From: a virus | Virus record (IMG/VR): IMGVR_UViG_3300047157_000126 | Location: 1-64,000 of that record | Length of the DNA stretch: 64,000 nucleotides | Reading direction: 5' to 3' (one strand) | In this document: positions 40,817 through 64,000 of the stretch, piece by piece | Layout of the letters: each line of letters starts with the position of its first letter | How positions within the stretch are numbered: the first letter of the stretch is position 1 | Notes under the pieces: model-generated | What the model was told of the DNA's origin: nothing | Seen by the model: only the letters and a program-made list of their open reading frames with translations | Database searches by the model: none | Translations under genes and position numbers: made by a program

Positions 40817-41108
40817 TCTGTTTTTTGGCTGGAATCAAATCTTTTCTTCTCTTCTATTCCTGTATTATCCTAGATGTAAATACAATAGCGCATAGCGCTG
40901 CAACTCTATAAGAAGGTAGCAAAATGCTACCCATATGGATGGGAGGGTCAAGGAGGCGTAGTGGCTTGGTAACGTTTTGTGTTAAACACATTGGTGTTGG
41001 TACACATACTACCGCATTGGTGTGGTCTGGTGGGGGTAGGGCGTGGTGCATAAACGCTGTACTGCGCCCCTGTTTGTACCTACGCACCCACCCCCACATA
41101 CGTTAGGA

Positions 41109-41232
41109 TTAGCGGGGCTTTAGCGGGGACTTTAGCGCCAAACCCTACCCCCCAAAACAGCCCAGAAACCGCTTTAGCGCACCCCATTAGCGCACCTTAG
41201 CCGGAGGCATTACATTAGCGCAACCTTTAGCG
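41109..41232 (+). repeat. Cluster of TTAGCG hexamers in a GC-rich non-coding strand-switch region
   Basis: TTAGCG at 41109, 41120, 41132, 41174, 41187, 41215, 41227 plus variants; followed by A/T tracts to ~41332. Confidence 0.75.
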
Positions 41233-41359
41233 CCTTCTTTAGTCCCACACAGCGCTCGACAAAATTTTCCATAGAATGGCTTTTTTTGGGTTTTAGGGGG
41301 TACGCCTCAAAAAAAATTTTAGAAAAAATTTCATAACATAAACCACCCTCCCACTTATC

Positions 41360-41866
41360 GTGTCTGCATTCAACAAAGCATGGTCTGTTCTCAAAATGAC
41401 CGAAATGCCGATGGGAGGAGATGTACCGCCACAAGAGTCTTATTCCCACAAAGATTTGGATGCTGAGGCACTCATAGATTTCTTAATCCAAAATCTGGGA
41501 ATGGATTATCAAGAGGCGAAAACCCTTGTTACACACCACAAAACCAAGGAAATGGGTGAAAAATCTCGTAAAAAGCCTCCGAAAGACAATGGTGGTGATA
41601 TGTCCATGTCCCCTATGATGCCTATGGCTAAGGCAATGGATTTTCTCAAGGGTCGTGGGGATTTTAGAATGCGGAATGTGAAAAAGCCGCAAGTTCAAAC
41701 AAGAACTCCTGCTGATGTAAATCAGATGGATTACAATGAACTAACGCCAGATGAACAATTAGAAAGGCGCAGAAACAAAGTTAATTCTTATGAATCTGAA
41801 TACGCTAGAAAAAATCGAGAAGAAAAAGAAAGGCTTGCTCGTGAAATGGGAGAGGGTCAACAATGA
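41360..41866 (+). CDS. AWxxLK-tag protein
   Basis: GTG start; MSAFNKAWSVLK and internal MAKAMDFLKG. Confidence 0.7.
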   Translation: MSAFNKAWSVLKMTEMPMGGDVPPQESYSHKDLDAEALIDFLIQNLGMDYQEAKTLVTHHKTKEMGEKSRKKPPKDNGGDMSMSPMMPMAKAMDFLKGRGDFRMRNVKKPQVQTRTPADVNQMDYNELTPDEQLERRRNKVNSYESEYARKNREEKERLAREMGEGQQ

Positions 41867-41907
41867 CAGCGTTTGAAACAGCATGGCCTCTTTTAAAAGC
41901 CTACTAA
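41863..41907 (+). CDS. Tag-only 14-aa ORF MTAFETAWPLLKAY
   Basis: ATGA overlap with the previous stop, GGAGAGG RBS; only the shared motif. Confidence 0.55.
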   Translation: MTAFETAWPLLKAY

Positions 41908-41940
41908 AATAAGATAAAATAAACAAGGACATTGATTAAA

Positions 41941-42396
41941 ATGACAGCATTTGAAGCAGCATGGGATATATTAAAAAGCAATACACTAGAAAAACAATCA
42001 TATCATCCAGCAATTCATGGTTTGATGAATAGAAAAAGACTTGCTGATGCTTTTAATGTTGATATGGATGAAGATTTTGAAGGTCAACATTACGGTTCAG
42101 TTGAAGAGCCTTATACAATGTATGATGATGAAGTACCAACTATGCCTAATTACGAAGATGTAAAACACTTAGCAAATAAACCCTCATATTTCCAACCTAG
42201 TGATTTTGTAGATGAAGCACAAGGTATGGGTTATGAGCCGAAAGGTGCTAGTGGGCCTAATTCACTTAGAGCCGCAGAACAATCAGGTGAATTAAAAAGA
42301 CAATCTAGAGGTTTAGCGACTAGAGATGCGGAAGCAAGAAGAAGGCAAGGAGATTTTAGAAATTATCCTAAGTTTGATTACGGGGCAAATATTTAA
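41941..42396 (+). CDS. AWxxLK-tag protein, acidic
   Basis: MTAFEAAWDILKS. Confidence 0.7.
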   Translation: MTAFEAAWDILKSNTLEKQSYHPAIHGLMNRKRLADAFNVDMDEDFEGQHYGSVEEPYTMYDDEVPTMPNYEDVKHLANKPSYFQPSDFVDEAQGMGYEPKGASGPNSLRAAEQSGELKRQSRGLATRDAEARRRQGDFRNYPKFDYGANI

Positions 42397-42605
42397 TGAC
42401 AGCATTCAATGAAGCGTGGGATTTTCTCAAAGCAGACCCCATTGATATGCACGAATATCCCCCCGGTTCAGGTAATTTTATGTCTTTACAAGACATGATA
42501 ATGGCTAGAAACGCAGATGCTCGCAAAAATATGCAAAATATGACTCCAAAACCTAGACCAACAGGAGGTAACACGTATGACAAAAGACCTTCAGGTTGGC
42601 AATAG
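42396..42605 (+). CDS. AWxxLK-tag small protein
   Basis: MTAFNEAWDFLKA. Confidence 0.65.
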   Translation: MTAFNEAWDFLKADPIDMHEYPPGSGNFMSLQDMIMARNADARKNMQNMTPKPRPTGGNTYDKRPSGWQ

Positions 42606-43107
42606 ACCCTTCGACCAAGCGTGGATTGTACTCAAAGCGCCAATTTATGAGACACCAATATCTAATATTAATTTTCTAACTGGGAATCGAGAAGATTATG
42701 ATAATAATGAAGAGATTTTTGGTGGAATGTACCCCGAAGATAAAAGAAGAGACCACATACAGCAAATGACACCTAACGAGTATCTTAGTCGAACGCCCAA
42801 AACTTCACACCCTAATCTTGGAGGATGGTTTGAAGAAAAAATAAAACAGGCTATTGAAAATAATCAAAAATTAAGATTAGGTATGCCATGGGTTCAATAT
42901 GACCCAAACATTACAGACCCGAAAGACCGTGATTATAGACTAAACTCACATGATGGAAGAAATAGAATGGCCGCTATGCAAAAACTTGGGCATGGAGATA
43001 CTGAGTTTCCTGTAAGAGTTACACACTGGCCCCCTAAAAGGCAATTAACAATGCGAGAACAATTAGAAGAAGCAAAAAGAAGAGTAAAGGGTGGGGGGTT
43101 TTTATGA
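42577..43107 (+). CDS. AWxxLK-tag protein with ParB/Srx-like domain
   Basis: PFDQAWIVLKAPIYE; MTPNEYL...MPWV...HDGRNRMAAMQKLG...FPV. Confidence 0.65.
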   Translation: MTKDLQVGNRPFDQAWIVLKAPIYETPISNINFLTGNREDYDNNEEIFGGMYPEDKRRDHIQQMTPNEYLSRTPKTSHPNLGGWFEEKIKQAIENNQKLRLGMPWVQYDPNITDPKDRDYRLNSHDGRNRMAAMQKLGHGDTEFPVRVTHWPPKRQLTMREQLEEAKRRVKGGGFL

Positions 43108-43841
43108 ATCCCTTCGACCAAGCATGGCTCTTACTCAAGGAAGAAGAGGTTAGATATCATCCACAAGATGAACCTATGAGTGTTGAAGATATGGAATCAT
43201 ATTATGATGTAACTGAACTTGGACAAATCGCAGGTGAAAAACCGATGGCAGGGGATATATCAACGGGCGACACAAGAGAAGATAGAAAGAAACAAACAAA
43301 GGTTTTTGGACAAACATTTCGTGGTAAGCCTACATTCAATCTGATGCCTTTGGCTGGTGAAAACCGGGCTATGGTGAATCCAAATGCTGAAATCTTTAGG
43401 CGTAGTGAGATGAACCCCTTAGACCAAGCATGGGCTTTGCTCAAGAATGATGACGATGAGTTCAAACAAGCGGCTTACGGAACTTGGTATGAAGATGACT
43501 GGGCAGATAAAATGCCGGAGGATTTCGACTTTGATGCTTTTGATGCTGAAGATTATGATGAGGAGATACATAGAGAATATCCGACTGGACAAGTAGGTTA
43601 TAATCCGGGTATGAAGGATTTGCGGAGGTCGCAATACAATCCTTGGGAAAGTTCCGAAGAGAATGAGAAGCGATTTAATGATTTGATAAATAATCCTACC
43701 CGCAACCCTATTATTATTGTGAGAGATAAAAACGGAGAAGAGCACATTATCTCCGGTCATCATAGGATGGCGGCAAACATTGAAGCCGGAAGGCCACATC
43801 TCCCCGCTTTAGTTTTGAATATGATGAGGAATCAACAATGA
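43104..43841 (+). CDS. Double-tag protein with C-terminal ParB/Srx-like domain
   Basis: MNPFDQAWLLLK and internal MNPLDQAWALLK (43410); NPIIIV...IISGHHRMAA...G...LPA. Confidence 0.75.
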   Translation: MNPFDQAWLLLKEEEVRYHPQDEPMSVEDMESYYDVTELGQIAGEKPMAGDISTGDTREDRKKQTKVFGQTFRGKPTFNLMPLAGENRAMVNPNAEIFRRSEMNPLDQAWALLKNDDDEFKQAAYGTWYEDDWADKMPEDFDFDAFDAEDYDEEIHREYPTGQVGYNPGMKDLRRSQYNPWESSEENEKRFNDLINNPTRNPIIIVRDKNGEEHIISGHHRMAANIEAGRPHLPALVLNMMRNQQ

Positions 43842-44770
43842 ACCCCTTCGACCAAGCATGGTCTCTGCTGAAGGCTCCGATTTATGAAGCACCTTCCACA
43901 TTTGAAGAAGGTGATTGGCCTAATTATTCTGATTCACTAGGGCAAGATGATAGATTTACAATGTTGCCTAACCTAGAAGAAATGGGAAAACCGTACATGT
44001 GGGAATCTGAAGATGGTAATGCAAGGGGCACAATATATCCTGATGATTTTAGAAACTCGATAAAAATAGATAATTTTGAATTAAATAGTGATGTTAAAGG
44101 TCAAGGTAAAGCAAGAAAATATCTTGAAGATTTTATTGAAGAAGGTCAAGATTATTTTATTGATAATGATGGTTTTCTTCTTGACGGAGTACATGTTACA
44201 AATGTAGAACATGGTGCGACGGGTTTTTGGGATAAAATGGTTGATGCGGGTGTGATTGATGGAGCACATTCAACAGGCTACATTAGAACTAATATCGCTG
44301 GTGATGAACATTACACTCACGCTTATGACGATAAAAAGCAACCTTGGTCACATGAATTAAATCCTGAATACGCTGAATATCATGGTTTACCAACAGATGC
44401 TATTTATGACCAATTCGTAGAAAAAGCGTATGAATATCACGGAACCGTAGATTTACCTAGCGTTTTACAACACGGAATAAGAGGTGGAAGTCCTAAAACT
44501 CGTTCAAAACGTTATGTGCCAGAATCTCTAAGAGCAGCAGATTTAGTGAATTATACAACTACAGACCCAGAAGCGGCACTAAGATTTGCACAAGAAAGGG
44601 CAAGAAGAACAAAGCAAGACCCTTCAAAAGTAGGAGTTGTGCGAATGAAAACAGCAGATTTACCTGAATATGTAGAGCATCAAGAGCCAGATTATGGTGA
44701 TTTACAAGGTGGTATGAGTAGAGTTCGTCAAGGTTCAATACCCCCAGAAGTATTACAGCAGTGGTCTTAA
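43838..44770 (+). CDS. AWxxLK-tag protein: GNAT-like plus ADP-ribosyltransferase-like domains
   Basis: MNPFDQAWSLLKA; VKGQGKA and ATGFWDKM (GNAT); YHGT...VLQHGI...YTTTDPEAALRFA...IPPE (Tpt1/KptA-like ART fold). Confidence 0.65.
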   Translation: MNPFDQAWSLLKAPIYEAPSTFEEGDWPNYSDSLGQDDRFTMLPNLEEMGKPYMWESEDGNARGTIYPDDFRNSIKIDNFELNSDVKGQGKARKYLEDFIEEGQDYFIDNDGFLLDGVHVTNVEHGATGFWDKMVDAGVIDGAHSTGYIRTNIAGDEHYTHAYDDKKQPWSHELNPEYAEYHGLPTDAIYDQFVEKAYEYHGTVDLPSVLQHGIRGGSPKTRSKRYVPESLRAADLVNYTTTDPEAALRFAQERARRTKQDPSKVGVVRMKTADLPEYVEHQEPDYGDLQGGMSRVRQGSIPPEVLQQWS

Positions 44771-44932
44771 TACAAATATACCTACTATTATCAGCCCTAC
44801 CATAAGTGAAATAACTGATTTTCGAATTGTTTTGCGTATTTGTCCCCGTAAAAGGTCATTAAAAGCCTCATGAACCATGTAAAACGCGACTACGACGGGT
44901 TTATTTATAAAGCATACCTGCGATTACTACTG

Positions 44933-45124
44933 ATGAGTACCACTCCTGAACCTTTTACTGAGGCTTGGCAAGTGCTAAAAGCGTACCCGCCGGAATCAAA
45001 TTTTACTGTTGAAGAAAAACAAATTGTTATGTCAACAATTTTGAAGATGATGATGAGTGGTAATACTCGTCTAGAAGAGGAGGCTGGATTGCTTTTCCAG
45101 CGATATGCTAATTTACGACAGTGA
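44933..45124 (+). CDS. AWxxLK-tag small protein
   Basis: MSTTPEPFTEAWQVLKAY; TTTATAAA box ~25 nt upstream. Confidence 0.6.
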   Translation: MSTTPEPFTEAWQVLKAYPPESNFTVEEKQIVMSTILKMMMSGNTRLEEEAGLLFQRYANLRQ

Positions 45125-45137
45125 GTTCGCACACCCC

Positions 45138-46058
45138 ATGAGTGACCCAGTAACAATTTATGAAGTGGGTCCAAGAGACGGTTTACAGTCTATTTCTAAA
45201 GAAGTTCCTACTGAGCAAAAAGCGTATTTAATTGATATGTTAATTGCAGCGGGATTGGATAAAATAGAAGTTGGAAGTTTTGTGAATCCCGCTTTGGTAC
45301 CTCAAATGAAAGATACCGCACTGGTTTTAAAGGGAATAAATCAAGAAGATAATCAAATTTCAGCATTAGTCCCAAACGCAAAAGGTTTAGAATTAGCAAA
45401 AGAAGCGGGTGTGAATCTCTTCAATATCTATCTTTCACCTTCTCCAGAGTTCAATACCCGCAATTTAGGTACTCCAAGTATTGATAGAATACTAGAAAGA
45501 TATGAAGTTGCTCTAGAGGAGGTTTTTCCTGAACAAGTGAGGTTATACATTTCTTGTGCTTTTGGTTCCGCTTTCGATGATTATGATGAGTCTCTTTTTA
45601 TTCAAATCTTAAAATGGGGGGCTGAAAACTCTTCCACAATAGTTTTAGCAGACACTACAGGAATAGCAACTCCAAAAGAAATTACCACCGTGGTAAAAAT
45701 TGCCCGCGAAATTATGCCAAATTTAGCCATTCACCTTCACAAGCCTAGTAGTAGGAAGGTTGAATTTTCGCATTTACTGGATGCTGCCTACTTATCCGGT
45801 ATTAGGGAGTTCGATACTTCTTTGGGTGGTTTAGGTGGTTGTCCTTTTGTTCCGGGTAGTTTTGGTAATTTACCAACTCGGTATTTAATTGACTGGGCTT
45901 CGGATTACGGAATTGAAATTGAACAATCTGTAGATATTGCAAAATTAGAGGCTGCTGAAATGTACCTAAAAGGAATTGTTAATATTCCGATGGCTGAAAG
46001 AGCCTATATTTATGTTTCAGGAAAACTGAGTGGTATTCGTAGAAGCCTTATCTCTTAA
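45138..46058 (+). CDS. hmgL: Hydroxymethylglutaryl-CoA lyase (DRE-TIM metallolyase)
   Basis: EVGPRDGLQ, SFVNP..VPQM.D, LADTTG, HLH, GLGGCPF.PG..GN. Confidence 0.9.
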   Translation: MSDPVTIYEVGPRDGLQSISKEVPTEQKAYLIDMLIAAGLDKIEVGSFVNPALVPQMKDTALVLKGINQEDNQISALVPNAKGLELAKEAGVNLFNIYLSPSPEFNTRNLGTPSIDRILERYEVALEEVFPEQVRLYISCAFGSAFDDYDESLFIQILKWGAENSSTIVLADTTGIATPKEITTVVKIAREIMPNLAIHLHKPSSRKVEFSHLLDAAYLSGIREFDTSLGGLGGCPFVPGSFGNLPTRYLIDWASDYGIEIEQSVDIAKLEAAEMYLKGIVNIPMAERAYIYVSGKLSGIRRSLIS

Positions 46059-46403
46059 CATCTGACGAGTTTCAGCCGCTAACTGTCCGTACCTTTCATC
46101 TTTTTCTGTCAATTTGGTTTTTTGATTGCCAATTTCTCCTGACATTCTCCCTAACCCGAAAGACGGTACCCCAAATGTCGCTCCGGTTTTTGCTGCGCCT
46201 GAAACCCCAACTTTACCTGCTCCTGATGCAATTGATGGCACACTACTAGCGGCAGTTGTTGTCATAGCACCTCCACCAATTGTTCTTGCTGCGCCACCTG
46301 CTACGTGTTTTCCACCTTGTCCAAGAACCATAGGAATAAATCTACTTCCTGCTGCCGCAACAAAAGGTATAGCAGGTGCAGCCTTGACTAGAACATAGCC
46401 CAT
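46017..46403 (-). CDS. Gly/Ala-rich protein, opposite strand to its neighbours
   Basis: MGYVLVKAAP...; GGGTGG RBS. Confidence 0.55.
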   Translation of the reverse strand: MGYVLVKAAPAIPFVAAAGSRFIPMVLGQGGKHVAGGAARTIGGGAMTTTAASSVPSIASGAGKVGVSGAAKTGATFGVPSFGLGRMSGEIGNQKTKLTEKDERYGQLAAETRQMLRDKASTNTTQFS

Positions 46404-46457
46404 TGAAACCACCCAATCAGCGAAATGGTAAAAGTGTTCTGCTTGTCTCGAATACTG

Positions 46458-46693
46458 TGATTGAACCAGCCGACATCATAGATGACCTCTTAAAAGGTCA
46501 ATTCGGATATGCTGGTAAAAGTTACATTTCTGACCGACCAAAAAAGCAAGCAAAGGCTAAAGTTCAACGATTAGCCCGGAAGGTTAAAACCCGAAAAACC
46601 AAAGCGAAGTACGCAAGACAGGTATCGCGAGGAGTACAAAGACCAAAAATGCGTAAACAAACTGGTTTAGTTAGAGTATCAAGGAGTAGATAA
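46458..46693 (+). CDS. Small highly basic protein
   Basis: DDLLKG then a K/R-rich segment; GTG start inferred. Confidence 0.5.
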
Positions 46694-46694
46694 A

Positions 46695-46988
46695 ATGGAC
46701 GCATTTGAAATGTCATGGAACTTATTAAGAAAAGCATGGTATGATTCTGTAGATGATAGACATAGAGAGCAACCTTTTGATAGAAATGATGATTTTGCAC
46801 CTTTTACAACTAGAGCAGAAAAAATGGCCGCTGCGAGGTTACACTCACAAGCAATGCGCCAAGATAATGAGCCAACAGGTACACCGCTAGATGATTATGA
46901 TGAAGTTCCACAAGATGAATTTGCTAATATGTCTAAAGATAAATTAGTGGCTATGGTTAGAAGAATGATGCAAGAAAAGGAGATGTAA
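46695..46988 (+). CDS. Tag-variant protein
   Basis: MDAFEMSWNLLRKAW. Confidence 0.65.
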   Translation: MDAFEMSWNLLRKAWYDSVDDRHREQPFDRNDDFAPFTTRAEKMAAARLHSQAMRQDNEPTGTPLDDYDEVPQDEFANMSKDKLVAMVRRMMQEKEM

Positions 46989-46990
46989 GT

Positions 46991-47326
46991 ATGCGTGAAG
47001 AAAAAATGGACGGAAAAAAGAAAAAGAAAGGAATGAGTTTAGTAATTGCTGTTACTCCACCTTCTCCTAAATCACCACAAGACACAGCGACACCCGAAGC
47101 AATGAAAAAAGCCTTTGAGTTTTTGAAAGATTACAACCAAATGGGAGTTGGTGCTGGTGCTGCTCAAGGAATGAATCTACAGGCTATACGTCAAAAAGTT
47201 CACGAAATGGACGCAAGAGCGCAACAAATGATGGCTACTGACCCACACGGTGCTTCACAAATGCGAGCAGAAGCGGATTATTTAGCAAACCAACTTCAAG
47301 AAATGATGAATGCTCGAAGACAATGA
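46991..47326 (+). CDS. Hypothetical protein with internal tag variant
   Basis: AMKKAFEFLKD. Confidence 0.6.
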   Translation: MREEKMDGKKKKKGMSLVIAVTPPSPKSPQDTATPEAMKKAFEFLKDYNQMGVGAGAAQGMNLQAIRQKVHEMDARAQQMMATDPHGASQMRAEADYLANQLQEMMNARRQ

Positions 47327-47335
47327 GGGGGTTAC

Positions 47336-48223
47336 ATGTTTTCCGATATAATGGTGAATTATATCTTAAAAGATGAAAATACCCTTTTAGAGCCTCCAGA
47401 AGTAAATACTTCAAAATTACCACCAGAGTTTTTTGCAGGGCACGCTTCTGAAAGATTGAGTGACCCTCTTCGTATGCATGATGAAAATGAAAGTGCAGAA
47501 GTAAAAACTAGAACTATACAAGGTTTAGTTGATGCTGGAATTATGGGACCTTTAGGTAATTATACAAAAGATGCACCTAGACATGTAGCAGTTAGAACAC
47601 ATTTTCTAGATTCTTTTAGAAATCCCATTGGGGTTAATGAAAAAGGACAACGACATTCAACTGGTAATACTATTGTAAGTATTGTAAGACCTCATAAAAA
47701 ACATAGAACCCCTCAAGTAAAAACTGTAATGCTTAGAGGTAATCATCAAAAATTTGGAAGAGGTGCTGGTCCGGGTACGATGAATGTAGACCAAGTTATA
47801 GACGCCTCACCTGAAAAAATAAATACAAATAATCCGCAAGTCGCAATAAGAAGAGCGAGAAAAGCAAAAAAGAAAAAAGCAGCAAGAGTAAGAATCCTAC
47901 CACCTGTACTACCCGGTCCGGGTTCAACTAGACCATTGGTTAAAAAAATGGTTCTAATTAAAGCACCAAAAAGAAAAATGTCTGAAGCGGCCAGACAACA
48001 TAAGTTGGCCTATGATAAAAAATACGAGTCTAGTCCTGAAAGAGTGAAATATCGAGTAGATTTGAATCGTGAGCGTAGACGCAGGGGTATTTATGGTTCG
48101 AATAATAAAAAAGATATTAGTCATACTCAAGGTGGAAAGTTTACTTTAGAAAACCAAAGTAGTAATAGGGCTAGGCATTTTAAAAATCGAGGCACACTTC
48201 GCAAGGTTAAGGTGAAGAAATGA
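47336..48223 (+). CDS. Basic protein with C-terminal HNH-like module
   Basis: YR.DLNR.RR...KDISH......LENQSSNRAR resembles small phage HNH-like proteins; preceded by VLIKA. Confidence 0.5.
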   Translation: MFSDIMVNYILKDENTLLEPPEVNTSKLPPEFFAGHASERLSDPLRMHDENESAEVKTRTIQGLVDAGIMGPLGNYTKDAPRHVAVRTHFLDSFRNPIGVNEKGQRHSTGNTIVSIVRPHKKHRTPQVKTVMLRGNHQKFGRGAGPGTMNVDQVIDASPEKINTNNPQVAIRRARKAKKKKAARVRILPPVLPGPGSTRPLVKKMVLIKAPKRKMSEAARQHKLAYDKKYESSPERVKYRVDLNRERRRRGIYGSNNKKDISHTQGGKFTLENQSSNRARHFKNRGTLRKVKVKK

Positions 48224-48390
48224 ATAGTTGCGATTGTGGTCATTGTGTGGGTATGGACACTGTTTGGAAGAAACTCTGTCCTGAAGGAAAAGCGGCAGCA
48301 AAAAGAAAGTTCAAAGTTTATCCATCCGCTTATGCTAATGGGTGGGCTGTACAATATTGTCGTGGTAAGTTTAGGGGGAAGAAAAAATGA
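48220..48390 (+). CDS. Small basic protein (DUF5872-like), not in ORF track
   Basis: MNSCDCGHC...AKRKFKVYPSAYANGWAVQYC; ATGA overlaps at both ends. Confidence 0.65.
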   Translation: MNSCDCGHCVGMDTVWKKLCPEGKAAAKRKFKVYPSAYANGWAVQYCRGKFRGKKK

Positions 48391-48548
48391 AACTTAAGAA
48401 AGATAAATGTTGTTGCGGTGGTACTAAAAAAACACCTTGTGTTTGTATGATTGAGGGTAATCAATGTTCAGTATCTTCTCCTAAGTGTCCTTGTTATGCT
48501 TTGATAGACAAGCAAAAGAACATTAAGAAAATGGTAGGCATTCTATGA
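48387..48548 (+). CDS. Small Cys-rich protein (53 aa), not in ORF track
   Basis: MKLKKDKCCCGGTKKTPCVCMIEGNQCSVSSPKCPCY...; ATGA overlaps at both ends. Confidence 0.6.
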   Translation: MKLKKDKCCCGGTKKTPCVCMIEGNQCSVSSPKCPCYALIDKQKNIKKMVGIL

Positions 48549-49261
48549 CACGATGTACCTGTCATGATGTACTCATTGTAAAAAACTTAAACCGTTGGTT
48601 TAAGGAAAAATGGGTAGATGTGTCACGTACTAAAGACGGAAAGCACCCACCGTGTGGTAGAAGCAAGGGAAAACTTTCAGGTAAAGGTTATCCTAAATGC
48701 AGACCTTCAATCAAAGTTTCAAGTAAAACACCTAAAACATCAGTTTCTATGTCATCAGGTGAGAAACAAGCAGCGACAAAAAGAAAACGTGCGAAAAAGC
48801 AAGGTGTGGATGGAAAACCAACAATAGTTAAGACAGACTACGCTATGCGAAGCAACATGAGTGCTTTTGATGCAGCGTGGAGTGTGTTGAAATCAAATAC
48901 TCTTCCTATTAGACCTAAAGTTATGCAATACGCAACCGACCAAAAGAAAACCATGAGATTAGAGCAGCCGGGTGGTGTCGCTCGAAGTGCTAGAAGAAAA
49001 CTAATGGATGAAACTCAGGCTAGAAAAAATGATAAATTTACAGATGAACCCGACATAATGAATCAGGAAGGGGATGTTCAAACTGAGTCATATGGACTGT
49101 CCCGACATGAATTGGAGGATTTACACGATGCGAGAATGACTCACGAACCTGTTTATCGTAATATGTTTTGGAACACTTTAATGAATAGGAAAGAATACGA
49201 GGCAGGTGATTTGGGACACTTTAATGAATATGATAGATTATATGAACGTGATTATGAATGA
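48545..49261 (+). CDS. DUF5872-like basic domain fused to an AWxxLK-tag module
   Basis: LNRWFKEKWVDV...CGRS...YPKCRP; internal MSAFDAAWSVLKS at 48857. Confidence 0.7.
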   Translation: MTRCTCHDVLIVKNLNRWFKEKWVDVSRTKDGKHPPCGRSKGKLSGKGYPKCRPSIKVSSKTPKTSVSMSSGEKQAATKRKRAKKQGVDGKPTIVKTDYAMRSNMSAFDAAWSVLKSNTLPIRPKVMQYATDQKKTMRLEQPGGVARSARRKLMDETQARKNDKFTDEPDIMNQEGDVQTESYGLSRHELEDLHDARMTHEPVYRNMFWNTLMNRKEYEAGDLGHFNEYDRLYERDYE

Positions 49262-49614
49262 GTTGGTTTGACACATGCGACTGTTGTACACCGATGCAAC
49301 AAGCGTCAGCAGCATTGTTAGATTCTGTTTTTGAGAAAGCAAAAAAGAAATCAAAACCATTTCACGGTTACAATCCAAACAGACATAGTAGAAGCGGTGG
49401 ACTAAATGCAAAAGGTCGAGCCAAAGCAAAAAGAGAAACAGGTGCAAACCTGAAAAGACCAGTTACTAAAAAACCAAGTTCACTAAAACCCGGTAGTAAA
49501 GCAGCAAACAGAAGAAAGTCTTTCTGTGCAAGAATGGGTGGAAGTAAAGGACCGACTAGTAAAGGCGGAAAACTAACACCGAAGGGCGCAGCGCTCAAAC
49601 GGTGGAACTGTTAA
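49258..49614 (+). CDS. Small basic protein (DUF6321-like)
   Basis: GGLNAKGR...NLKRPV...RRKSFCARM...ALKRWNC. Confidence 0.7.
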   Translation: MSWFDTCDCCTPMQQASAALLDSVFEKAKKKSKPFHGYNPNRHSRSGGLNAKGRAKAKRETGANLKRPVTKKPSSLKPGSKAANRRKSFCARMGGSKGPTSKGGKLTPKGAALKRWNC

Positions 49615-49617
49615 TCT

Positions 49618-49701
49618 CATTTGTCTTATTATTAATATAGACTCTATACATATATATTAATTATTATATATATACTAATAATAAGATAAATAAGACAAAT
49701 G
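49618..49701. repeat. AT-rich inverted repeat
   Basis: CATTTGTCTTATT (49618-49630) pairs with AATAAGACAAATG (49689-49701) around a TA-rich core. Confidence 0.7.
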
Positions 49702-49773
49702 GATAAAAACCTCGGATTTTTACTCAGAAGGGTTTAAGGTGACCCCATCCGTGGCCTTTCACAAGGTGTGTAT

Positions 49774-50433
49774 ATGTCTGATACAACAGATTCCGAAATT
49801 AGATTGATGGGATTAATAATAAGTCAGTCTGCATTGATTGGGGTTGCAGTTGCTATTTTTGATTCAAAATTATGGCTAGTGAATGACGAAACATGGATGA
49901 ATGGGCTAAATTACTCAATGGGCGCTTTCGCCTTACAAGGTTTAGCATATTATCTATTCAAAATGTTCTTTGAAAGAAATCTTAGAGAACGTGCTAGGAT
50001 GACCGAGTTTCAAAGACAACATCAATCTAGGTTCAGGAATATGCAAGTTAACTTTGACCAAAGAAGGTCTGATATGGAATTAAGAAGACAAGAAATGGAA
50101 TTAGAAAAAGAATTAAGATGGATGCATGAGAATCCTGATAAGGTTATGTCACCACCTTCATTTTTAACAGAAAATAGAGATGTTAATAATATGGCTAATT
50201 TAGGATTAGATTATCATTCTACTTTTAATCCCGGCATTCCTACACACAATACTAATATACAACAACCATTAGGTTTAGGAGTCGAATCCGCTAATATGAG
50301 AGAAATTTATCAAATGACTGATTCTATGGTAAAAGATTTACCAACTCCTCCTAAAGATGGAAAGCCAACTCAAAACGCATCTGGCATGAGGTTAAAAAAG
50401 GATGGAACACCTGACCTTAGATATAAGAGTTGA
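49774..50433 (+). CDS. Membrane protein (2 TM) with coiled coil and C-terminal KKDGTPDLRY motif
   Basis: Two hydrophobic segments at the N-terminus, R/E/Q coiled coil. Confidence 0.65.
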   Translation: MSDTTDSEIRLMGLIISQSALIGVAVAIFDSKLWLVNDETWMNGLNYSMGAFALQGLAYYLFKMFFERNLRERARMTEFQRQHQSRFRNMQVNFDQRRSDMELRRQEMELEKELRWMHENPDKVMSPPSFLTENRDVNNMANLGLDYHSTFNPGIPTHNTNIQQPLGLGVESANMREIYQMTDSMVKDLPTPPKDGKPTQNASGMRLKKDGTPDLRYKS

Positions 50434-50438
50434 ACTAG

Positions 50439-50696
50439 ATGGGTAAGATATTCAAAACTCCAAAAGATGATTCAGTAGAAGAAACGCTTAGAGCCATGCA
50501 TTTGGCTAATACAGTTGATAACGTATATGAATGGGGATATGGTTGGATTAGAACTGTTGTGGTAGCAGTTGCTTCGGTTTTTATTATTAGTGCTCTTGAA
50601 GCGAATAGTGACTTTTCTTTATGGGAATCAACAGTAGAATGGGGTTATCAGCAAATAGCAGATTTTGGCTCTTGGTTAACAAATAAATTTAGTTGA
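50439..50696 (+). CDS. Small membrane protein
   Basis: TVVVAVASVFIISAL transmembrane segment. Confidence 0.65.
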   Translation: MGKIFKTPKDDSVEETLRAMHLANTVDNVYEWGYGWIRTVVVAVASVFIISALEANSDFSLWESTVEWGYQQIADFGSWLTNKFS

Positions 50697-50706
50697 TTTA
50701 AGGTAG

Positions 50707-51429
50707 GTGATTACTTTGAGTATGACTGGTAGTGTTTTAGTAGGCGCTGCGCTATGGGGTCAAAATATTTACAATGCTTGGCGCCCACGTAGTGTTGGTA
50801 TTTATGGAACAGCAATGGTAGGAAAAACCACTTTGGATTCTTATATGACAACACCGGGAGAGATGTATGATATCCCTATTGATGAAAGAACTGAACATTA
50901 TAAAATATTAACAAGATATATTTTACCTAAATCGACTAAAAAAAGAGTATCTTGGAAGGGTGAAAAGCGAGTTGTGAACTCTGCTGATATAGGTGGACAA
51001 GAAAGATATTGGAATCTTTGGATAGAAGATATGGTATATCGACAAGCGGAAGCGATAATCTATATGTTCGATGAAAGGGCTTTGAAGGGTGGTGCTGAAG
51101 GTATGGAGCAAGTTGCAGGATTCAAATATTTATGTGATGTTTTAATTTCTCGTAATTATCGTTATAGAAGCATAAAAAGTAGAATAAAAGGTAGAAAATA
51201 TTCACCTAAACTGATAATGTTAGTCGCAAACAAAGCAGATAGATTTTTTGATGACAACGCCGCTTTACTTTGGCAACAAGGTAGAATAGGAGAACATAAG
51301 GTATTTGACCCCTTTAGAGATGATTTAATTCGTTTACAAAAATCAGGAATCAGAACAAAAAGAAGTTTTATGGCTACTAGGATAGGATGGAATGTTGAAA
51401 TTACAATGTTAGATTTATTAACAATGTAG
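50707..51429 (+). CDS. Ras-superfamily (Arf-like) small GTPase
   Basis: G1 GTAMVGKTT, G2-like RT, G3 DIGGQ, G4 NKAD; hydrophobic N-terminus. Confidence 0.85.
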   Translation: MITLSMTGSVLVGAALWGQNIYNAWRPRSVGIYGTAMVGKTTLDSYMTTPGEMYDIPIDERTEHYKILTRYILPKSTKKRVSWKGEKRVVNSADIGGQERYWNLWIEDMVYRQAEAIIYMFDERALKGGAEGMEQVAGFKYLCDVLISRNYRYRSIKSRIKGRKYSPKLIMLVANKADRFFDDNAALLWQQGRIGEHKVFDPFRDDLIRLQKSGIRTKRSFMATRIGWNVEITMLDLLTM

Positions 51430-51491
51430 TGTGTACCTTTCAAGTGACCTCATCAGTAACCTTTTTGATATGGGTGGTGGTGCGCCAACTA

Positions 51492-51677
51492 ATGGCAAGA
51501 GTGAATAATGAGACCACTCTTGTGTCAACTGGAGGAGGCTCTAATAGTCTAAGAACAACTGTTCCGATGTGGATAATTGAACAATTTAAACTTACAGCAG
51601 GAGAAAAACTAAGTTGGAAGTTTGATGTTAATGAAGATGGAGAATTGTGTGTAAAGGTGACTCCTCAACAGAAGTGA
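51492..51677 (+). CDS. AbrB/MazE-like DNA-binding protein
   Basis: SLRTTVPMWIIEQFKLTAGEKLSW; GGTGG RBS. Confidence 0.75.
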   Translation: MARVNNETTLVSTGGGSNSLRTTVPMWIIEQFKLTAGEKLSWKFDVNEDGELCVKVTPQQK

Positions 51678-51681
51678 TAAT

Positions 51682-52635
51682 ATGGTATCTAATTATATCC
51701 CCGGTTATAATAATCAACAACAAATTAATTCTTTAGGTCATTCTAACGAAACAGCATTAATGGCTCTTGCGGCACAAGGTAATCCTCAATTAAATAGAGC
51801 AGTTTTAATGGAACAAGCCGCCGCTCAACGTTCTATGCAAGAAATGGCTTCTCAAAAAAACCTAGAAGTCCCTAAAGTTAATTTTTATCCATCAACTCAT
51901 GGTAATTCTAGAAAAGCCAGAAAACAAGATATACGTCAAGCGTATAAATTATTAAGGCCAGCAAAAAGAAGTCTAATTTCTCCAGCAAGACTTTTTGGTA
52001 GTAAATATAGGTACAATAAGCAATCACATGTTTGTGTGGTAGATGGTTGTGATTGTAAAGAATTAATTCAATACGATAATCTTTACGAGAAAATATGTGA
52101 CGATGAAACTGGTAGAAGTCTCTGGGATATGTATTGGCAAAATCCAGTTACTGGACAGGCTGAAGCGTTTTTAGCGATGGATAAAGTAACTAGTGGTAGA
52201 AAAATGAGGGGTACTTATTGTCCTGAACATTTACATTTATTTCACCTTCTTTGTAAATGGGAAACTGAAGAAGAAAGAGAATATGAAATGAATCCTAATC
52301 GTTTACGTGATAAAGTAAAACAAGGTGTTTCTATTGTTACTGTTCCTGTTAGTGTAATGCAAAAAAATGATGCAGATACACCTTTGATGTTATCGAAGTA
52401 TGAGCCTTTTTTTGAATTGTTAGAAAAAGACGCTAGAGCCTATGAAGGAATAAATATCACTCATTATAAAAACCCAGAAACAGGAATAAACGATATTACT
52501 ACAGTAACATTTGATTTGCGAATATTCCAAAAAGAATTGTTGGAAATAAATCAACCAACACCTGCTTTTCAACAAATTATTAATCAGCAACCTAATAACA
52601 CGTCCCCCATACCGAATACACAAGGGGTGAATTAG
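51682..52635 (+). CDS. Hypothetical protein with Cys/His cluster
   Basis: 317 aa; CVVDGC...YCPEH; Q/N-rich ends. Confidence 0.6.
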   Translation: MVSNYIPGYNNQQQINSLGHSNETALMALAAQGNPQLNRAVLMEQAAAQRSMQEMASQKNLEVPKVNFYPSTHGNSRKARKQDIRQAYKLLRPAKRSLISPARLFGSKYRYNKQSHVCVVDGCDCKELIQYDNLYEKICDDETGRSLWDMYWQNPVTGQAEAFLAMDKVTSGRKMRGTYCPEHLHLFHLLCKWETEEEREYEMNPNRLRDKVKQGVSIVTVPVSVMQKNDADTPLMLSKYEPFFELLEKDARAYEGINITHYKNPETGINDITTVTFDLRIFQKELLEINQPTPAFQQIINQQPNNTSPIPNTQGVN

Positions 52636-52637
52636 TT

Positions 52638-53285
52638 ATGGTAGGAATATTTGGAAATCCACATCAAACTCCACAATCCACATCTTCTCTCAATTTATCA
52701 CAAACTGGGGCACCGTTTGGTCAACAACATCAGCAACAATTCGGTTTTGGACAACAACCAGTAGCACAGGGTTTTGTAGCGGGGCTTGGAATGCAAGACC
52801 AATATAATCAATTTAATCAATTTGCTCAACAACCTGTAGCCCCTCCTTCTGAAACAGAGATTTTGATGGCTATGCTTGAAACATTAAATCCTGTTGAAAA
52901 GTTTATTGTAAGCGCACAAATGCCTGTTATGATTGAAATGTTATCTAATATTTCTACATTCTCTTTCCTAAATGTATTAAAAAATGCTAAATTTAAACTA
53001 GACGAGGAAACTGGTACTCTTAGTTTAGACGTTACAACTCTTCCTTCTGATTTACAAACATTATCTGCTGAAAATATTGTCGCTCAATTAAGTAATTTAC
53101 AAAACCAATCAACAGCAATTATTCAACAAGCAGAGATGAGAAGACAACAAGTTTTGGCTATGTCACAACAATCTATGTTGCAGGGCGCGTTAGGTGCGGC
53201 GCTTGAAAATCCCGGTATGATGGAAAACGTTGGTAATGCTGTTGGTAGTACTGCTCGTAGTTTATTATTCGGAGGTAGAGCATAA
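52638..53285 (+). CDS. Gln/Phe/Gly-rich hypothetical protein
   Basis: 215 aa; FGQQ low-complexity N-terminus. Confidence 0.6.
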   Translation: MVGIFGNPHQTPQSTSSLNLSQTGAPFGQQHQQQFGFGQQPVAQGFVAGLGMQDQYNQFNQFAQQPVAPPSETEILMAMLETLNPVEKFIVSAQMPVMIEMLSNISTFSFLNVLKNAKFKLDEETGTLSLDVTTLPSDLQTLSAENIVAQLSNLQNQSTAIIQQAEMRRQQVLAMSQQSMLQGALGAALENPGMMENVGNAVGSTARSLLFGGRA

Positions 53286-53530
53286 TGATGTCAGGAATAC
53301 CAAACCCAATTAATCAAATGAATGAAATGGCATTAGGAATGTGGAGTCCACAACGCAGTGTAATAATTGATATGATAATGGTTCAATTAATTTCTTTGAT
53401 TGTGATGATGGTAGCAGTTTTATTATTTAGAGGTGGAGACTTATCAACTAACGAGGCTACATTTTTCGTCTTTGGATTATTCTCTTCGCTTGTGTTTTTA
53501 AGTGCGGTTTACGCAAGAATAACACAATAG
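53285..53530 (+). CDS. Small 2-TM membrane protein (holin-like topology)
   Basis: Two hydrophobic helices in 81 aa. Confidence 0.6.
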   Translation: MMSGIPNPINQMNEMALGMWSPQRSVIIDMIMVQLISLIVMMVAVLLFRGGDLSTNEATFFVFGLFSSLVFLSAVYARITQ

Positions 53531-53571
53531 TGGTAATAATATTGAATAACAAGGTTATCATACGATAATCA

Positions 53572-54258
53572 ATGGACGAAGAGGCGCGTATTACAAAACG
53601 CTCTTGTTCCTTTTGTCAACATCCAGATAGAGATGGACTCGAAGATGATTTACTTGCGGGTAATATAACTCCTAAACAAATGGACCAAGAGATGGGTTGG
53701 CGAGCGAATACTTCTGATAGACATTTTAGAAATCATATGGGAGAATACCACATGGGTGCTAATCCTAGATGTGTTATTTGCTCCCATGATGACAGGTCTG
53801 CTTTTGAGGCTAGATTTTTTACTGATGGGTCAGAATCGGAGGCTATTGCTCAGGAATTAGATATTGCTGAGAATACTGTGTATCATCACATGAAGCACCA
53901 CTTTCAACCGTTGGTTAAGAAATCAGCAGCAGTTGAGGTCGCAATTACAGTTGGTCAAGAACTTGGAATACTTAGAAACAATGTCGAAAAACTAAATGAT
54001 AAACTTTCAGAATTACTTTCTGAGGGTAGTGTTCATGAAGATGGTTTTGTTAGAGATGCTGTATCATTACATAAAGAAGTAAGAGAATCAATAAAAGACT
54101 TAGTAAAATTCAATGATACTTGGGGCAGTGATACTACAGAGACTACTGTAAATCAAACAATAAATATTTTAAAAGTAGAATTAGCCAAGGAATCTCCTGA
54201 ATCTTGGAAGAGAATTAAATCTCAATTAATCGAATCTGCTGGAGGAGATATAGCGTGA
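53572..54258 (+). CDS. Duplicated CxxCxH/HTH protein, candidate terminase small subunit
   Basis: Two repeats CSFCQHPDR...HFRNH and CVICSHDDR...HMKHH, then a coiled coil; upstream of terL. Confidence 0.45.
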   Translation: MDEEARITKRSCSFCQHPDRDGLEDDLLAGNITPKQMDQEMGWRANTSDRHFRNHMGEYHMGANPRCVICSHDDRSAFEARFFTDGSESEAIAQELDIAENTVYHHMKHHFQPLVKKSAAVEVAITVGQELGILRNNVEKLNDKLSELLSEGSVHEDGFVRDAVSLHKEVRESIKDLVKFNDTWGSDTTETTVNQTINILKVELAKESPESWKRIKSQLIESAGGDIA

Positions 54259-54653
54259 TTATAATTGATGAGTTATTTGTTTCATCACATCCCGGTTACA
54301 GACTATTACATGATAACATAATCATTGATGAAAAAAGACTACCTGTGTTTTTAGATTATATTTCTTTAGTGTTCCAAAAGTTTAACTTTTATGTTGAAAA
54401 AGAGAATCTACAATTAGTTTTTGGTAGTGCTATTTTAGAAGTGATTAGGTATCTAAAAACTCTTTGTGAATCTGATGAACCTGAAATTGTTTTTGATACA
54501 AGAAGTAAGTTAAGAGAGATTTTACCAAGAATAAGAGGTGAATTAAAATTAATGGGAAGTTGTTTTCTTGACCCACCTAGCATCCAACAGTTCTATGAAG
54601 ACATAGCCTCTGCGTTACAGCGCTCTAGTGAGTATCTTATGGGGGATTATTGA
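54255..54653 (+). CDS. Hypothetical protein
   Basis: 132 aa, GTGA overlap, GGAGG RBS. Confidence 0.55.
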   Translation: MIIIDELFVSSHPGYRLLHDNIIIDEKRLPVFLDYISLVFQKFNFYVEKENLQLVFGSAILEVIRYLKTLCESDEPEIVFDTRSKLREILPRIRGELKLMGSCFLDPPSIQQFYEDIASALQRSSEYLMGDY

Positions 54654-55885
54654 TGACTGAAGGTATGATGGGTAGAGGTTCTGATACCAGAATGTACGCT
54701 CCTCGTTCAGAATCGTCTATTATGTTCAGAAATAATGACGGAGATGGAAGTTATAATCCCGGTGACCCTCGTTATGAAGATATGGAAAAAGAGAAGAAAA
54801 GAAAAGAAAAGGAGAAACACGATAAAAAACTTCGTAGAAGAAAACATATCAAAGTGAAACCGGGTATTTTAAGAAATGTTGGGGACGAAGAAGAAGATGA
54901 AGAAAGAGAAGATGACTCCGACAAATATGATGCAGACAGAGAGACTCACTTACAAACAGGTGCTGCGGGTAATTTTGGCTTTTTATCTAGTTTAGCAGGT
55001 GGAGCAAAAGGCCCCGGCGTTGGTAGAGGTGAACTAATTTCTACTGGCGAACCTATGGCTGCTGCTTGGTCTGAATTAAGGAAAGCAAAAACTAAGAAAC
55101 AGAGAGAAAAACAAAGTAAAAAAGAGTCTAGAAAAAAAGGTCGTCCAAGCACTGGTGAGTTCAAAAAACCAAAAGGTGGCTATTCCCCTAAGTCTGCAAC
55201 ATCTAGAAGAGCAAAAGCACTGTCAAGAAGTTTAGGTGGTTCTAAGAAAACTGGGTTAGGTAGAGCACACTTGGCAGTTGAGATGTCTCACCGTGGGCTG
55301 AAAACAAAACAACCTATGAGATTAGAAGACCCTAGAAAATATGCAAGTTTTATGGCAAGACAAGGTTCTATGGCACAACAAGGCCAAGTAAGAACCCCAG
55401 CATCACCTACACCAGCATCAGTAGTTGGCTTTTCAGGAAGAGTACCTAAACCTAAACTAAAACCAATGAGACCTCCACCAATTCAACCACCAAGAATCGC
55501 TGGTGCTCCACATTTGGCTATGGGTGGTGGGGCTTCTGGTATGCCAGCACCCCCACCACCAATGCCTGTTATGACAAGTGAAGATGTGTTTATTGGCTCA
55601 GAATTACAAAAAAGAAGAGGTGGTTTTGATTGGGCTACCGTACAAGAATTAAGACAATTACTCAATAGAACTAGAAGAATCCTTAGAGAAAAAGAAAGTA
55701 AGAAGAAAGGATATGGAAATGCTGATACAAGTGGTGCTGGGAGTAATCTACCAAAACACCCTAGTAATGCCCCTAAATCTACAAATAGAAATGAAGGGGC
55801 TACAGAAGACGCAAAGACAGACCCTCGCCACTTCGGAATTGATACAGTCGGTCATGATGTTGGGCGAGGGGGCGCGACACCATGA
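54650..55885 (+). CDS. Low-complexity charged/Pro-rich protein with internal tag variant
   Basis: EPMAAAWSELRKA at ~55049-55087; K-rich and P-rich tracts. Confidence 0.65.
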   Translation: MMTEGMMGRGSDTRMYAPRSESSIMFRNNDGDGSYNPGDPRYEDMEKEKKRKEKEKHDKKLRRRKHIKVKPGILRNVGDEEEDEEREDDSDKYDADRETHLQTGAAGNFGFLSSLAGGAKGPGVGRGELISTGEPMAAAWSELRKAKTKKQREKQSKKESRKKGRPSTGEFKKPKGGYSPKSATSRRAKALSRSLGGSKKTGLGRAHLAVEMSHRGLKTKQPMRLEDPRKYASFMARQGSMAQQGQVRTPASPTPASVVGFSGRVPKPKLKPMRPPPIQPPRIAGAPHLAMGGGASGMPAPPPPMPVMTSEDVFIGSELQKRRGGFDWATVQELRQLLNRTRRILREKESKKKGYGNADTSGAGSNLPKHPSNAPKSTNRNEGATEDAKTDPRHFGIDTVGHDVGRGGATP

Positions 55886-63929: not shown

Positions 63930-64000
63930 ATGTCAGAAGAAACCACTGAAGAGCGATTGGTTAATGCTCTTATTACGAAAATGGAATCTATGGAATCTGA
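63930..64000 (+). CDS. Start of next gene (partial)
   Basis: MSEETTEERLVNALITKMESMES, runs off the window. Confidence 0.55.
   Translation, partial: MSEETTEERLVNALITKMESMES

Follow-up and report, generated by a model that had tools for sequence, protein, structure and literature searches.

A viral contig of 81,728 bp (IMG/VR virus record IMGVR_UViG_3300047157_000126, designated G000) contains, within its first 64,000 nucleotides (referred to as the window), a cluster of genes whose products are mutually unrelated except for a 12-residue peptide tag, which typically occupies their N-terminus. The tag is conserved as a peptide and stops abruptly at a lysine; the same kind of lysine motif lies at processing-like borders in the capsid protein and prohead protease of the virus. 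By analogy with the capsid-targeting sequence (CTS) of phage T4, the tag is on balance probably a portable head-loading tag with a protease site, resembling the CTS in its working and not by descent.

A six-frame translation of the contig reveals ten copies of the strict pattern [FL]xxAWxxLK, all of which are on the plus strand between 41.36 and 48.9 kb, whereas 100 mononucleotide shuffles of the contig give a mean of 0.04 copies and a maximum of 1. A looser pattern is matched 17 times in the contig versus a shuffle mean of 3.53 and a maximum of 8. The phenylalanine codons of the ten strict tags are located at 41369, 41872, 41950, 42405, 42610, 43113, 43419, 43847, 44954 and 48866, and the ten close matches reported in a preliminary description of this DNA, which was made from the letters alone, are found where that description placed them and on the same strand throughout. 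Residue counts over 105 sequences give the consensus M-[TNS]-[PA]-F-[DEN]-x-[AS]-W-x-[LVFI]-L-K followed by A, M, S or E, with proline enriched at position 14, and the frequencies of D5 and Q6 are inflated by the F-D-Q-A-W-x-x-L-K pattern used in the search. Residues F4, A7 and W8 are conserved as strongly as K12, and conservation stops at K12.

Within the window the conserved residues are encoded by TTC or TTT, by GCA, GCG or GCT, by five different leucine codons and by AAA or AAG. Every synonymous codon is in use at the conserved residues of 53 tags from six genomes, which comprise this contig and five whole relatives with a capsid protein 64-100% identical. Upstream of the tags, the DNA is unrelated between copies. 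The variation of synonymous codons and the unrelated upstream DNA indicate that selection acts on the peptide and not on the DNA, which rules out the DNA-level (regulatory) element that the preliminary description had considered as another source of the conservation.

A hidden Markov model (HMM) built from 96 distinct tags was used with a hit threshold of 14 bits, and the profile scan of relatives that had been proposed earlier finds the tag there as well: 144 non-redundant tags are detected in 2.04 Mb of DNA, with clearly two-peaked scores. The six genomes contain 47 tags at or above this threshold (6 to 10 per genome), and all 47 are on the strand of the structural genes, with PolB or the thermosome on the other strand; the main cluster of tags is located upstream of the terminase gene. 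A search of IMG/VR with the back-translated F-D-Q-A-W-x-x-L-K pattern identifies at least 50 loci. When tags are counted by a looser protein pattern among the matches listed, 46 of 50 loci have at least one tag and 33 have at least two, with 13 loci having one tag (some clearly by chance) and 4 having none. The capsid-protein family of this virus is present in 14 of the 15 tag-bearing contigs tested, and the exception is a record rated 51% complete. Additionally, in 14 of the 80 loci taken around the capsid gene, a tagged gene lies 2.8-3.3 kb past the start of the capsid gene; the cargo of these genes varies between loci and matches none of the structural proteins of this contig.

A start codon is located exactly at tag position 1 in 120 of the 144 tags and is absent in 23, most of which have a methionine a few residues upstream, and the remaining tag is at a contig edge. 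Thirteen of the 144 are preceded by at least 50 open codons, and six of these 13 lack a start codon at position 1. Internal tags in long frames fit the processing of multi-cassette proteins and not a feature of translation start.

The genome in which the cluster resides is divided into two arms. The structural module follows the tag cluster and shares its strand, with the large terminase subunit (58943-60442, plus strand; Pfam Terminase_6C and Terminase_6N) coming before the portal protein (61778-63529, plus strand; Pfam Phage_portal), whereas PolB (Pfam DNA_pol_B), an SNF2 helicase and a thermosome are on the opposite arm. The thermosome gene is in the minus arm at window positions 4939-6441 and matches Cpn60_TCP1 with an E-value of 3e-127. 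The capsid protein is 33% identical to the capsid proteins of the haloviruses HVTV-1 and HCTV-1. A capsid protein approximately 33% identical to those of haloviruses, an own PolB module and a thermosome are hallmarks of magroviruses in the sections of PMC5434244 considered here. Judged by the capsid identity, PolB and the thermosome, all of which are found, the contig is magrovirus-like and represents a tailed virus of Poseidoniales.

The tag DNA pattern was also compared with 185,579 species genomes, in which the sole match is a 106-kb contig from a Candidatus Poseidoniales single-cell genome. This contig (L079, contig 2 of G006; 106,262 bp) encodes a capsid protein 63-65% identical, a thermosome and at least 18 tags, and two of its tagged genes directly follow the portal gene. 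It represents a whole magrovirus-like genome inside a Poseidoniales single-cell assembly, which ties this virus group to its host. In HVTV-1, no match to a loose tag DNA pattern is found, and an all-against-all scan for recurrent N-terminal motifs finds none, using the same script that recovers the tag in the present contig. A halovirus precedent is thus rejected and, since HVTV-1 has no tag, halovirus virion data cannot be borrowed.

The ten strict tags and their variants in the window, all on the plus strand, are distributed as follows. Tag 1 (M/V-SAFNKAWSVLK, 41360-41395; 19.0 bits by the HMM) is at the GTG start of a 168-residue open reading frame (ORF) at 41360-41866. The stop of this ORF overlaps the ATG of a 14-codon mini-ORF (41863-41907) that consists of the tag, the residues AY and a stop and resembles an empty cassette. 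Tag 3 (MTAFEAAWDILK, 41941-41976; 17.1 bits) starts a 151-residue cargo ORF that ends at 42396, and its cargo is absent from the close relative G001. Tag 4 (MTAFNEAWDFLK, 42396-42431; 19.8 bits) starts a 69-residue ORF at 42396-42605, and tag 5 (NRPFDQAWIVLK, 42601-42636; 22.6 bits) lies 8 codons past the ATG of a 176-residue ORF at 42577-43107. Tag 6 (MNPFDQAWLLLK, 43104-43139; 22.9 bits) starts a 245-residue two-cassette ORF at 43104-43841, in which tag 7 (MNPLDQAWALLK, 43410-43445) is internal, preceding the ParB-like part with 124 codons open upstream; two complete tags in one protein are also present in P0280, which was identified by homology search. Tag 8 (MNPFDQAWSLLK, 43838-43873; 24.5 bits) starts a 310-residue ORF at 43838-44770, and tag 9 (PEPFTEAWQVLK, 44945-44980; 17.8 bits) is located 4 codons past the ATG at 44933 of a 63-residue ORF. 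Tag 10 (MSAFDAAWSVLK, 48857-48892) is internal to the ORF at 48545-49261, where it follows a DUF5872 part with 110 codons open upstream, and the layout is the same in G001. The matches listed in the preliminary description therefore stand, with the corrections that the match at 41863 belongs to a mini-ORF, that those at 42601 and in the 44933 ORF are offset from the ATG, and that those at 43410 and 48857 are internal.

The variants that had been proposed alongside these matches differ in their standing. The variant MDAFEMSWNLLR followed by K (46695-46730), at the start of a 97-residue ORF at 46695-46988, scores 15.8 bits and is conserved in G001 and in L050. The variants MMPMAKAMDFLK (41615-41650, within the ORF at 41360-41866 and at the same site in G001) and PEAMKKAFEFLK (47093-47128, in the ORF at 46991-47326) belong to an internal subclass, P-M-x-x-A-[FYM]-x-x-L-K, that is present in relatives too. 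In the relative L032, a canonical tag is followed by a sequence like NYNQMGV in a longer open frame, which matches the 47093 variant in a correspondence drawn by eye. Internal tags resembling P-M-[DE]-I-A-[FY]-x-L-L-K are found on the late strand, always deep within long frames, in 4 of the 7 genomes scanned. The last proposed variant, GEPMAAAWSELRK (55046-55084, in the 411-residue ORF at 54650-55885), is matched by the loose pattern only and scores below 6 bits; the idea that it is a tag comes solely from the relative G004, where a GEPM-prefixed internal tag is present in a 635-codon open frame between the tag cluster and the terminase gene, and it is doubtful.

What follows the lysine is diverse, as the preliminary description had noted: BLAST sorts the 144 cargos that are 30 residues or longer into 73 clusters. 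Among 129 tagged proteins, Pfam identifies DUF6321 in 3, HD_4 in 2, a double zinc ribbon in 2 and GNAT in 1-2, and PHROGs adds phosphohydrolase and ParB-like matches, with most families having no assigned function. The cargo is hydrophilic and often acidic. The ParB-like assignment made earlier holds for the C-terminal part of the ORF at 43104-43841 only (PHROG match at residues 200-240, E 8e-5), and the GNAT assignment is retained for the one or two Pfam matches and for weak fold matches. The latter derive from a predicted model of the 310-residue tagged protein (mean predicted local distance difference test score 54), for which a Foldseek search of the PDB gives no match at E <= 0.001; its top weak rows, a KptA/Tpt1 entry (E 0.018) and GNAT enzymes, are leads only. 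The 176-residue protein gives nothing below E 0.06 against solved structures. Two very basic proteins are also encoded in this region, at 49258-49614 (DUF6321-like) and at 47336-48223 (with a C-terminal H-K-L-x-Y-D-x-K-Y module). In related genomes canonical or internal tags precede these proteins, with degenerate Lys-ended sites in their place here, and the proteins may be DNA-binding and packed with the genome.

The lysine that ends the tag has counterparts on two head proteins that are encoded beyond the window: a fusion of an S78 prohead protease (Pfam Peptidase_S78, E 3.7e-10) with a long part resembling a scaffold (contig positions 70285-71655), and an SU10/HK97-type capsid protein (contig positions 71674-72804). 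All 80 of 80 close capsid proteins have the N-terminus G-S-E-L-L-K followed by A/S-D. Among 123 homologues of 31-91% identity, capsid position 34 has K 90 times and R 15 times, and one of L, I, F and V occupies position 32 in 90, with positions 19-29 being mostly gaps. The lysine site thus has an indel-rich, variable linker before it and a conserved A-D-x-P-h-L-T-T core after it. The leader of the protease is variable, approximately 10-25 residues long, and always ends in two hydrophobic residues and a lysine, followed by G, A, S or Q. At the two borders of the protease domain, K18 and K170 are present in every one of 55 sequences, and the domain ends in G-I-N-P-E-A-T-F-x-I-L-K in 48 of 54, after which conservation falls. 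The junction E-A-T-F-R-I-L-K and the tag D-Q-A-W-S-L-L-K are alike at five to six of eight places.

The same motif is avoided in the cargo. Counts of [LIVFM][LIVFM]K were compared with within-protein shuffles, and the cargo after the tag has 19 such triplets versus 41.2 expected (129 sequences, z -3.6). With one representative per cargo cluster (69 sequences), 12 are observed versus 22.2 expected, with 5 of 1000 shuffles being as low, and 6 of the 12 triplets that are left are internal tag-like sites. The arginine version of the triplet is not avoided in the cargo (ratio 1.03-1.12), and in the cluster representatives the triplets with R, D, Q or N and the reversed K-h-h give ratios of 1.12-1.45. 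The mature capsid protein also has fewer triplets than expected (82 versus 124, 0.66; arginine version 0.96), and ORFs of at least 150 residues on the opposite strand exhibit no avoidance (254 versus 247, 1.03). The sets include related sequences and spurious ORFs and the shuffles ignore secondary structure, so that the effect sizes are rough, and the contrast between lysine and arginine is the firmest avoidance result. The earlier proposal that the tag is cut after the lysine is indirectly supported by the shared ending on the capsid and protease borders and by the lysine-specific avoidance, and cutting seems somewhat more likely than loading.

Lysine motifs near the N-terminus are not confined to tagged proteins. 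A motif ending at residues 8-20 is present in 49 of 362 untagged late-strand ORFs versus 16 of 378 ORFs on the other strand (Fisher p 7e-6); the late-strand ORFs concerned include a 746-residue protein and giant proteins adjoining the head genes, as well as the terminase. Large untagged late-strand proteins at 55882-58122 and 60573-61796 and at contig positions 64778-70261 have leaders, short and variable, with a hydrophobic-hydrophobic-Lys end at residues 12-18, and could be additional targets of the head protease.

The shared lysine motif and its avoidance in the cargo would also suit a tag that is a propeptide or degron only, which keeps the protein inactive or times its removal through a Lys-specific protease of the virus or the host, with no loading or delivery. 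Any Lys-specific protease would account for a motif that is shared with the protease borders and avoided in the cargo. A bare cleavage site, however, needs its last three residues only, yet F4, A7 and W8 are conserved like K12, and tagged genes are within the head gene module in several relatives. The S78 prohead proteases of tailed phages are enclosed in procapsids and act within them, so that cutting by an S78 enzyme would itself imply a position inside the head. A propeptide or degron without loading is accordingly quite improbable.

Docking to a partner other than the capsid, which may be a host hub or a viral protein such as the thermosome, would also explain a short motif on many proteins: the tag would gather accessory proteins in the infected cell, with no packaging. 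The residues F-x-x-x-W-x-x-L form one hydrophobic helix face, as in many helical docking motifs, and the tag functions at internal positions too. All tag-bearing genomes examined encode a thermosome, and HVTV-1, in which the thermosome was not searched for, has no tag. Docking of this kind leaves unexplained the invariant lysine and the abrupt end of conservation, the lysine motif at the capsid and protease borders, and the avoidance of lysine and not arginine triplets in both cargo and mature capsid protein. Additionally, no SWIB/MDM2-like or other obvious receptor domain is present among the Pfam families listed (25 of 26) for the 77 other ORFs of the contig, and no such tag is found in cellular genomes except in the viral contig. 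We therefore regard a non-capsid partner as unlikely.

Under the head-loading reading, the F-x-x-x-W-x-x-L face would give a short amphipathic helix through which the protein docks within the procapsid during assembly, and the hydrophobic-hydrophobic-Lys end would then be cut by the S78 prohead protease of the virus. The same motif would serve to trim the N-arm of the capsid protein and to free the protease domain from its leader and from the scaffold part. The cargo brought in by this route would include HD phosphohydrolases, GNAT-like and ParB-like domains, zinc ribbons and basic proteins, with most having no known function. In the predicted model of the 310-residue protein (43838-44770), residues 3-9 form a helix, which is followed by low confidence to approximately residue 45. 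Docking in the procapsid, a place in the virion and injection are proposed from the gene position, the strand and the analogy with T4.

An N-terminal amphipathic helix could alternatively bind a membrane or serve as an export signal to the cell envelope or the outside, and a gene cluster just downstream (49768-53530) includes a candidate small GTPase (a weak Roc match with E 4.4e-4, below the Pfam cut-off). The helical part of the tag comprises approximately nine residues, including Asp and Gln, with a net charge of approximately zero, and the cargo, as described above, is hydrophilic. Sec, Tat and class III signals combine a basic n-region with a hydrophobic core, 7-15 residues long, behind it. 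The tag has neither a basic n-region nor a hydrophobic stretch of that length (D/E/N occupies position 5 and Q/E/R/K position 6), which excludes these three signal types, and membrane binding or export of any kind is highly improbable.

A comparison of the contig with G001 reveals how the cassettes are exchanged. The structural proteins of the two genomes are 94-100% identical, with five of six at 99-100%, whereas across the tag cluster the genomes form a mosaic of shared blocks with different cargo between them. The block boundaries are at 41877 (end), 42394 (start), 42635 (end) and 43838 (start), each of which is in or at the edge of a tag; at 41877 the collinear block ends inside the tag of the mini-ORF. 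The loose ends of contigs from RNA libraries likewise diverge inside tags, at 42406 and 48867, and four of the window's tags share 66-80% identity with a fifth across a stretch of 44 nucleotides (repeat family D5). The swappable set of proteins envisaged in the preliminary description is thus supported by breakpoints between the two genomes that fall at tags. Since the cassettes begin with nearly the same 36 bases, the tags would double as recombination joints, which would lead to a fast turnover of cargo.

These breakpoints, together with the empty cassette at 41863 and the family D5 similarity, raise the question of whether the tag is kept mainly as a joint, that is, as a 36-base cassette boundary whose peptide has little function. 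The free use of synonymous codons in the 53 tags is contrary to this, as is the conservation of the amino acids in lineages with diverged DNA. Moreover, a DNA joint needs no reading frame, no place at codon 1 and no invariant Trp and Lys. A role mainly as a joint is very unlikely, and recombination at the tags is best seen as a consequence.

A possible link between the tag and the scaffold was also considered. A 112-residue protein that follows the portal gene (start at 63930-64000 in the window, plus strand, continuing to contig position 64268) has a C-terminal M-S-W-[DE]-[ED]-I-H that matches the tail of the protease-scaffold protein. The common C-terminal sequence M-[SDT]-W-[DSE]-[ED]-[VI]-H-x-[LM]-A is present in both proteins in nearly all relatives of the group and is a candidate capsid-binding tail. 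In a distant lineage (G002 and G006), G-W-x-A-x-E-D-L-A takes the place of M-S-W-D-E-V-H. The tag as a copy of this tail is rejected, with only a partial, Trp-centred likeness and no co-variation between lineages. A prediction of the complex of the capsid protein, the protease-scaffold protein and residues 1-40 of a tagged protein scores 0.00 in both runs, which amounts to no answer from the tool and is not evidence either way.

Several observations weigh against head loading followed by cleavage. The scaffold tail differs between lineages while the tag is constant, which makes the tail-copy idea weak for this group. The position preceding the tag lysine is relaxed (V, I, A, T, S or M) in the lineage to which the single-cell contig belongs, and the virus of that contig keeps LLK and ILK at its capsid and protease sites; no co-variation of this residue between the tags and the head-protein sites is seen. 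Untagged ORFs on the same strand are enriched in the lysine triplet (390 versus 299 expected, 1.31), which could mean genuine processing sites or simply the composition of helices. The terminase (58943) also has an N-terminal lysine motif, though it is not expected in proheads. The z-scores of the avoidance test are too high, because the sequences are related and the shuffles ignore secondary structure. Ten to eighteen cargo species per genome are many for one head, and both the presence of tagged proteins in virions and their cutting are points that we infer.

The timing of expression adds two further reservations of the same kind. Contigs from RNA libraries (four runs from three studies, two on record as RNA and two guessed) cover parts of 41.5-57.5 kb in small shares; their coverage of the cluster is incomplete, DNA may be among them, and they give no measure of expression level, strand or timing. 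As the opening block of the late-strand arm, in which no internal promoters are seen, the tag cluster could be expressed early or late. No repeated element that could be a shared late promoter is present in the few intergenic gaps of the plus arm. On the replication arm, a promoter-like element of 60-80 nucleotides with a TTTATATA box is found in 8-9 copies in one orientation (19222-40825, minus strand; repeat families D1 and D2), and this element is not found in the plus arm.

Other features of the window are noted briefly. The divergent intergenic region between the arms (40826-41359) is G+C-rich and contains approximately 8 copies of TTAGCG(C) in approximately 140 bases (41100-41240), an array that could be an origin or a regulatory element. 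An HMGL-like (pyruvate carboxyltransferase-type) gene at 45105-46058 is untagged and located within the tag cluster, and the lysine triplet is not avoided in its product (3 seen, 1.5 expected). At the end of the portal gene (63203-63310), five 18-bp repeats encode P-G-G-A-P-P units. The contig also has matches to ArdA antirestriction, DUF932, ERCC4 and PD-(D/E)XK nuclease domains, which are not assigned to particular ORFs.

The closest functional parallel is the CTS of the T4 internal proteins IPI, IPII, IPIII and Alt, a short N-terminal peptide that is cut by the prohead protease on cargo that remains in the head and is ejected into the host; this precedent, cited in the preliminary description, is confirmed in the sections of PMC7411985 considered here. 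Both systems place a short N-terminal peptide on unrelated proteins (approximately 10-20 residues in T4), and the T4 peptide ends at a head-protease motif that also processes the capsid and scaffold, as the shared lysine motif would do here. The differences are equally clear: the tag has no sequence similarity to the T4 CTS as we know it, the protease is of the S78 HK97 type and not gp21, and the presumed cut is after Lys, whereas it is after Glu in T4. Here the host is an archaeon, ten to eighteen cassettes are present per genome, the sample contains more than 70 cargo clusters, and some tags are internal. The T4 internal-protein loci are polymorphic. Homology to the T4 CTS or to gp21 is ruled out by the Peptidase_S78 match and the unlike sequence, and the tag is an analogue and not a member of that system.

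Comparable addresses are known from other shells. The HK97 maturation protease, which the preliminary description had cited as cutting after Lys, has a C-terminal capsid-targeting segment, a terminal peptide that leads into a procapsid of the HK97 fold; the shared C-terminal M-S-W-[DE]-E-[VI]-H could play that role here, whereas the tag is N-terminal and dissimilar to the scaffold tail. The cargo-loading peptides of encapsulins and microcompartments are short terminal peptides on unrelated enzymes that bind the inner face of the shell; the microcompartment encapsulation peptides are amphipathic helices, and encapsulin shells have the HK97 fold. Their shells are genome-free, however, their peptides are not removed by a protease, and those of encapsulins are mostly C-terminal. 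Polymorphic toxins, such as the MuF-linked toxins of phages, also combine a constant N-terminal address with a variable C-terminal cargo and recombine at the constant part, but the address here is 12 residues long and not a domain, and most of the cargo has no recognisable toxin domain. The head proteins of SPN3US have N-terminal propeptides of 111-130 residues that are cut at one shared motif and have no single shared sequence, according to the sections of PMC7411985 considered here. Those propeptides are long and non-identical, whereas the tag is one 12-residue peptide.

The tag is not described in the literature searched, which included the main text of magrovirus papers, and it is not mentioned in the considered sections of PMC7411985. 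Relatives of the capsid protein are present in at least 598 IMG/VR stretches, and a protein search gives 1950 proteins. Magroviruses are uncultured and are among the most abundant viruses of ocean archaea, and most of their genes have no known function.

Tentatively, magroviruses may practise polymorphic effector delivery, in which a 12-residue address, combined with a protease site and a recombination joint, would load ten to eighteen interchangeable enzymes and DNA-binding proteins per genome into the head for delivery with the DNA into Poseidoniales. An address on approximately one tenth of the genes would class genes of no known function as delivered with the particle, would predict the specificity of the head protease and would account for the fastest turnover being in this part of the genome; tests of the idea do not require the virus to be cultured. 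If true, no cargo-loading code would have been described earlier for an archaeal virus, the tag would offer an easy means of filling HK97-fold shells with proteins, and it would give insight into the way in which archaeal viruses disarm their hosts on entry.

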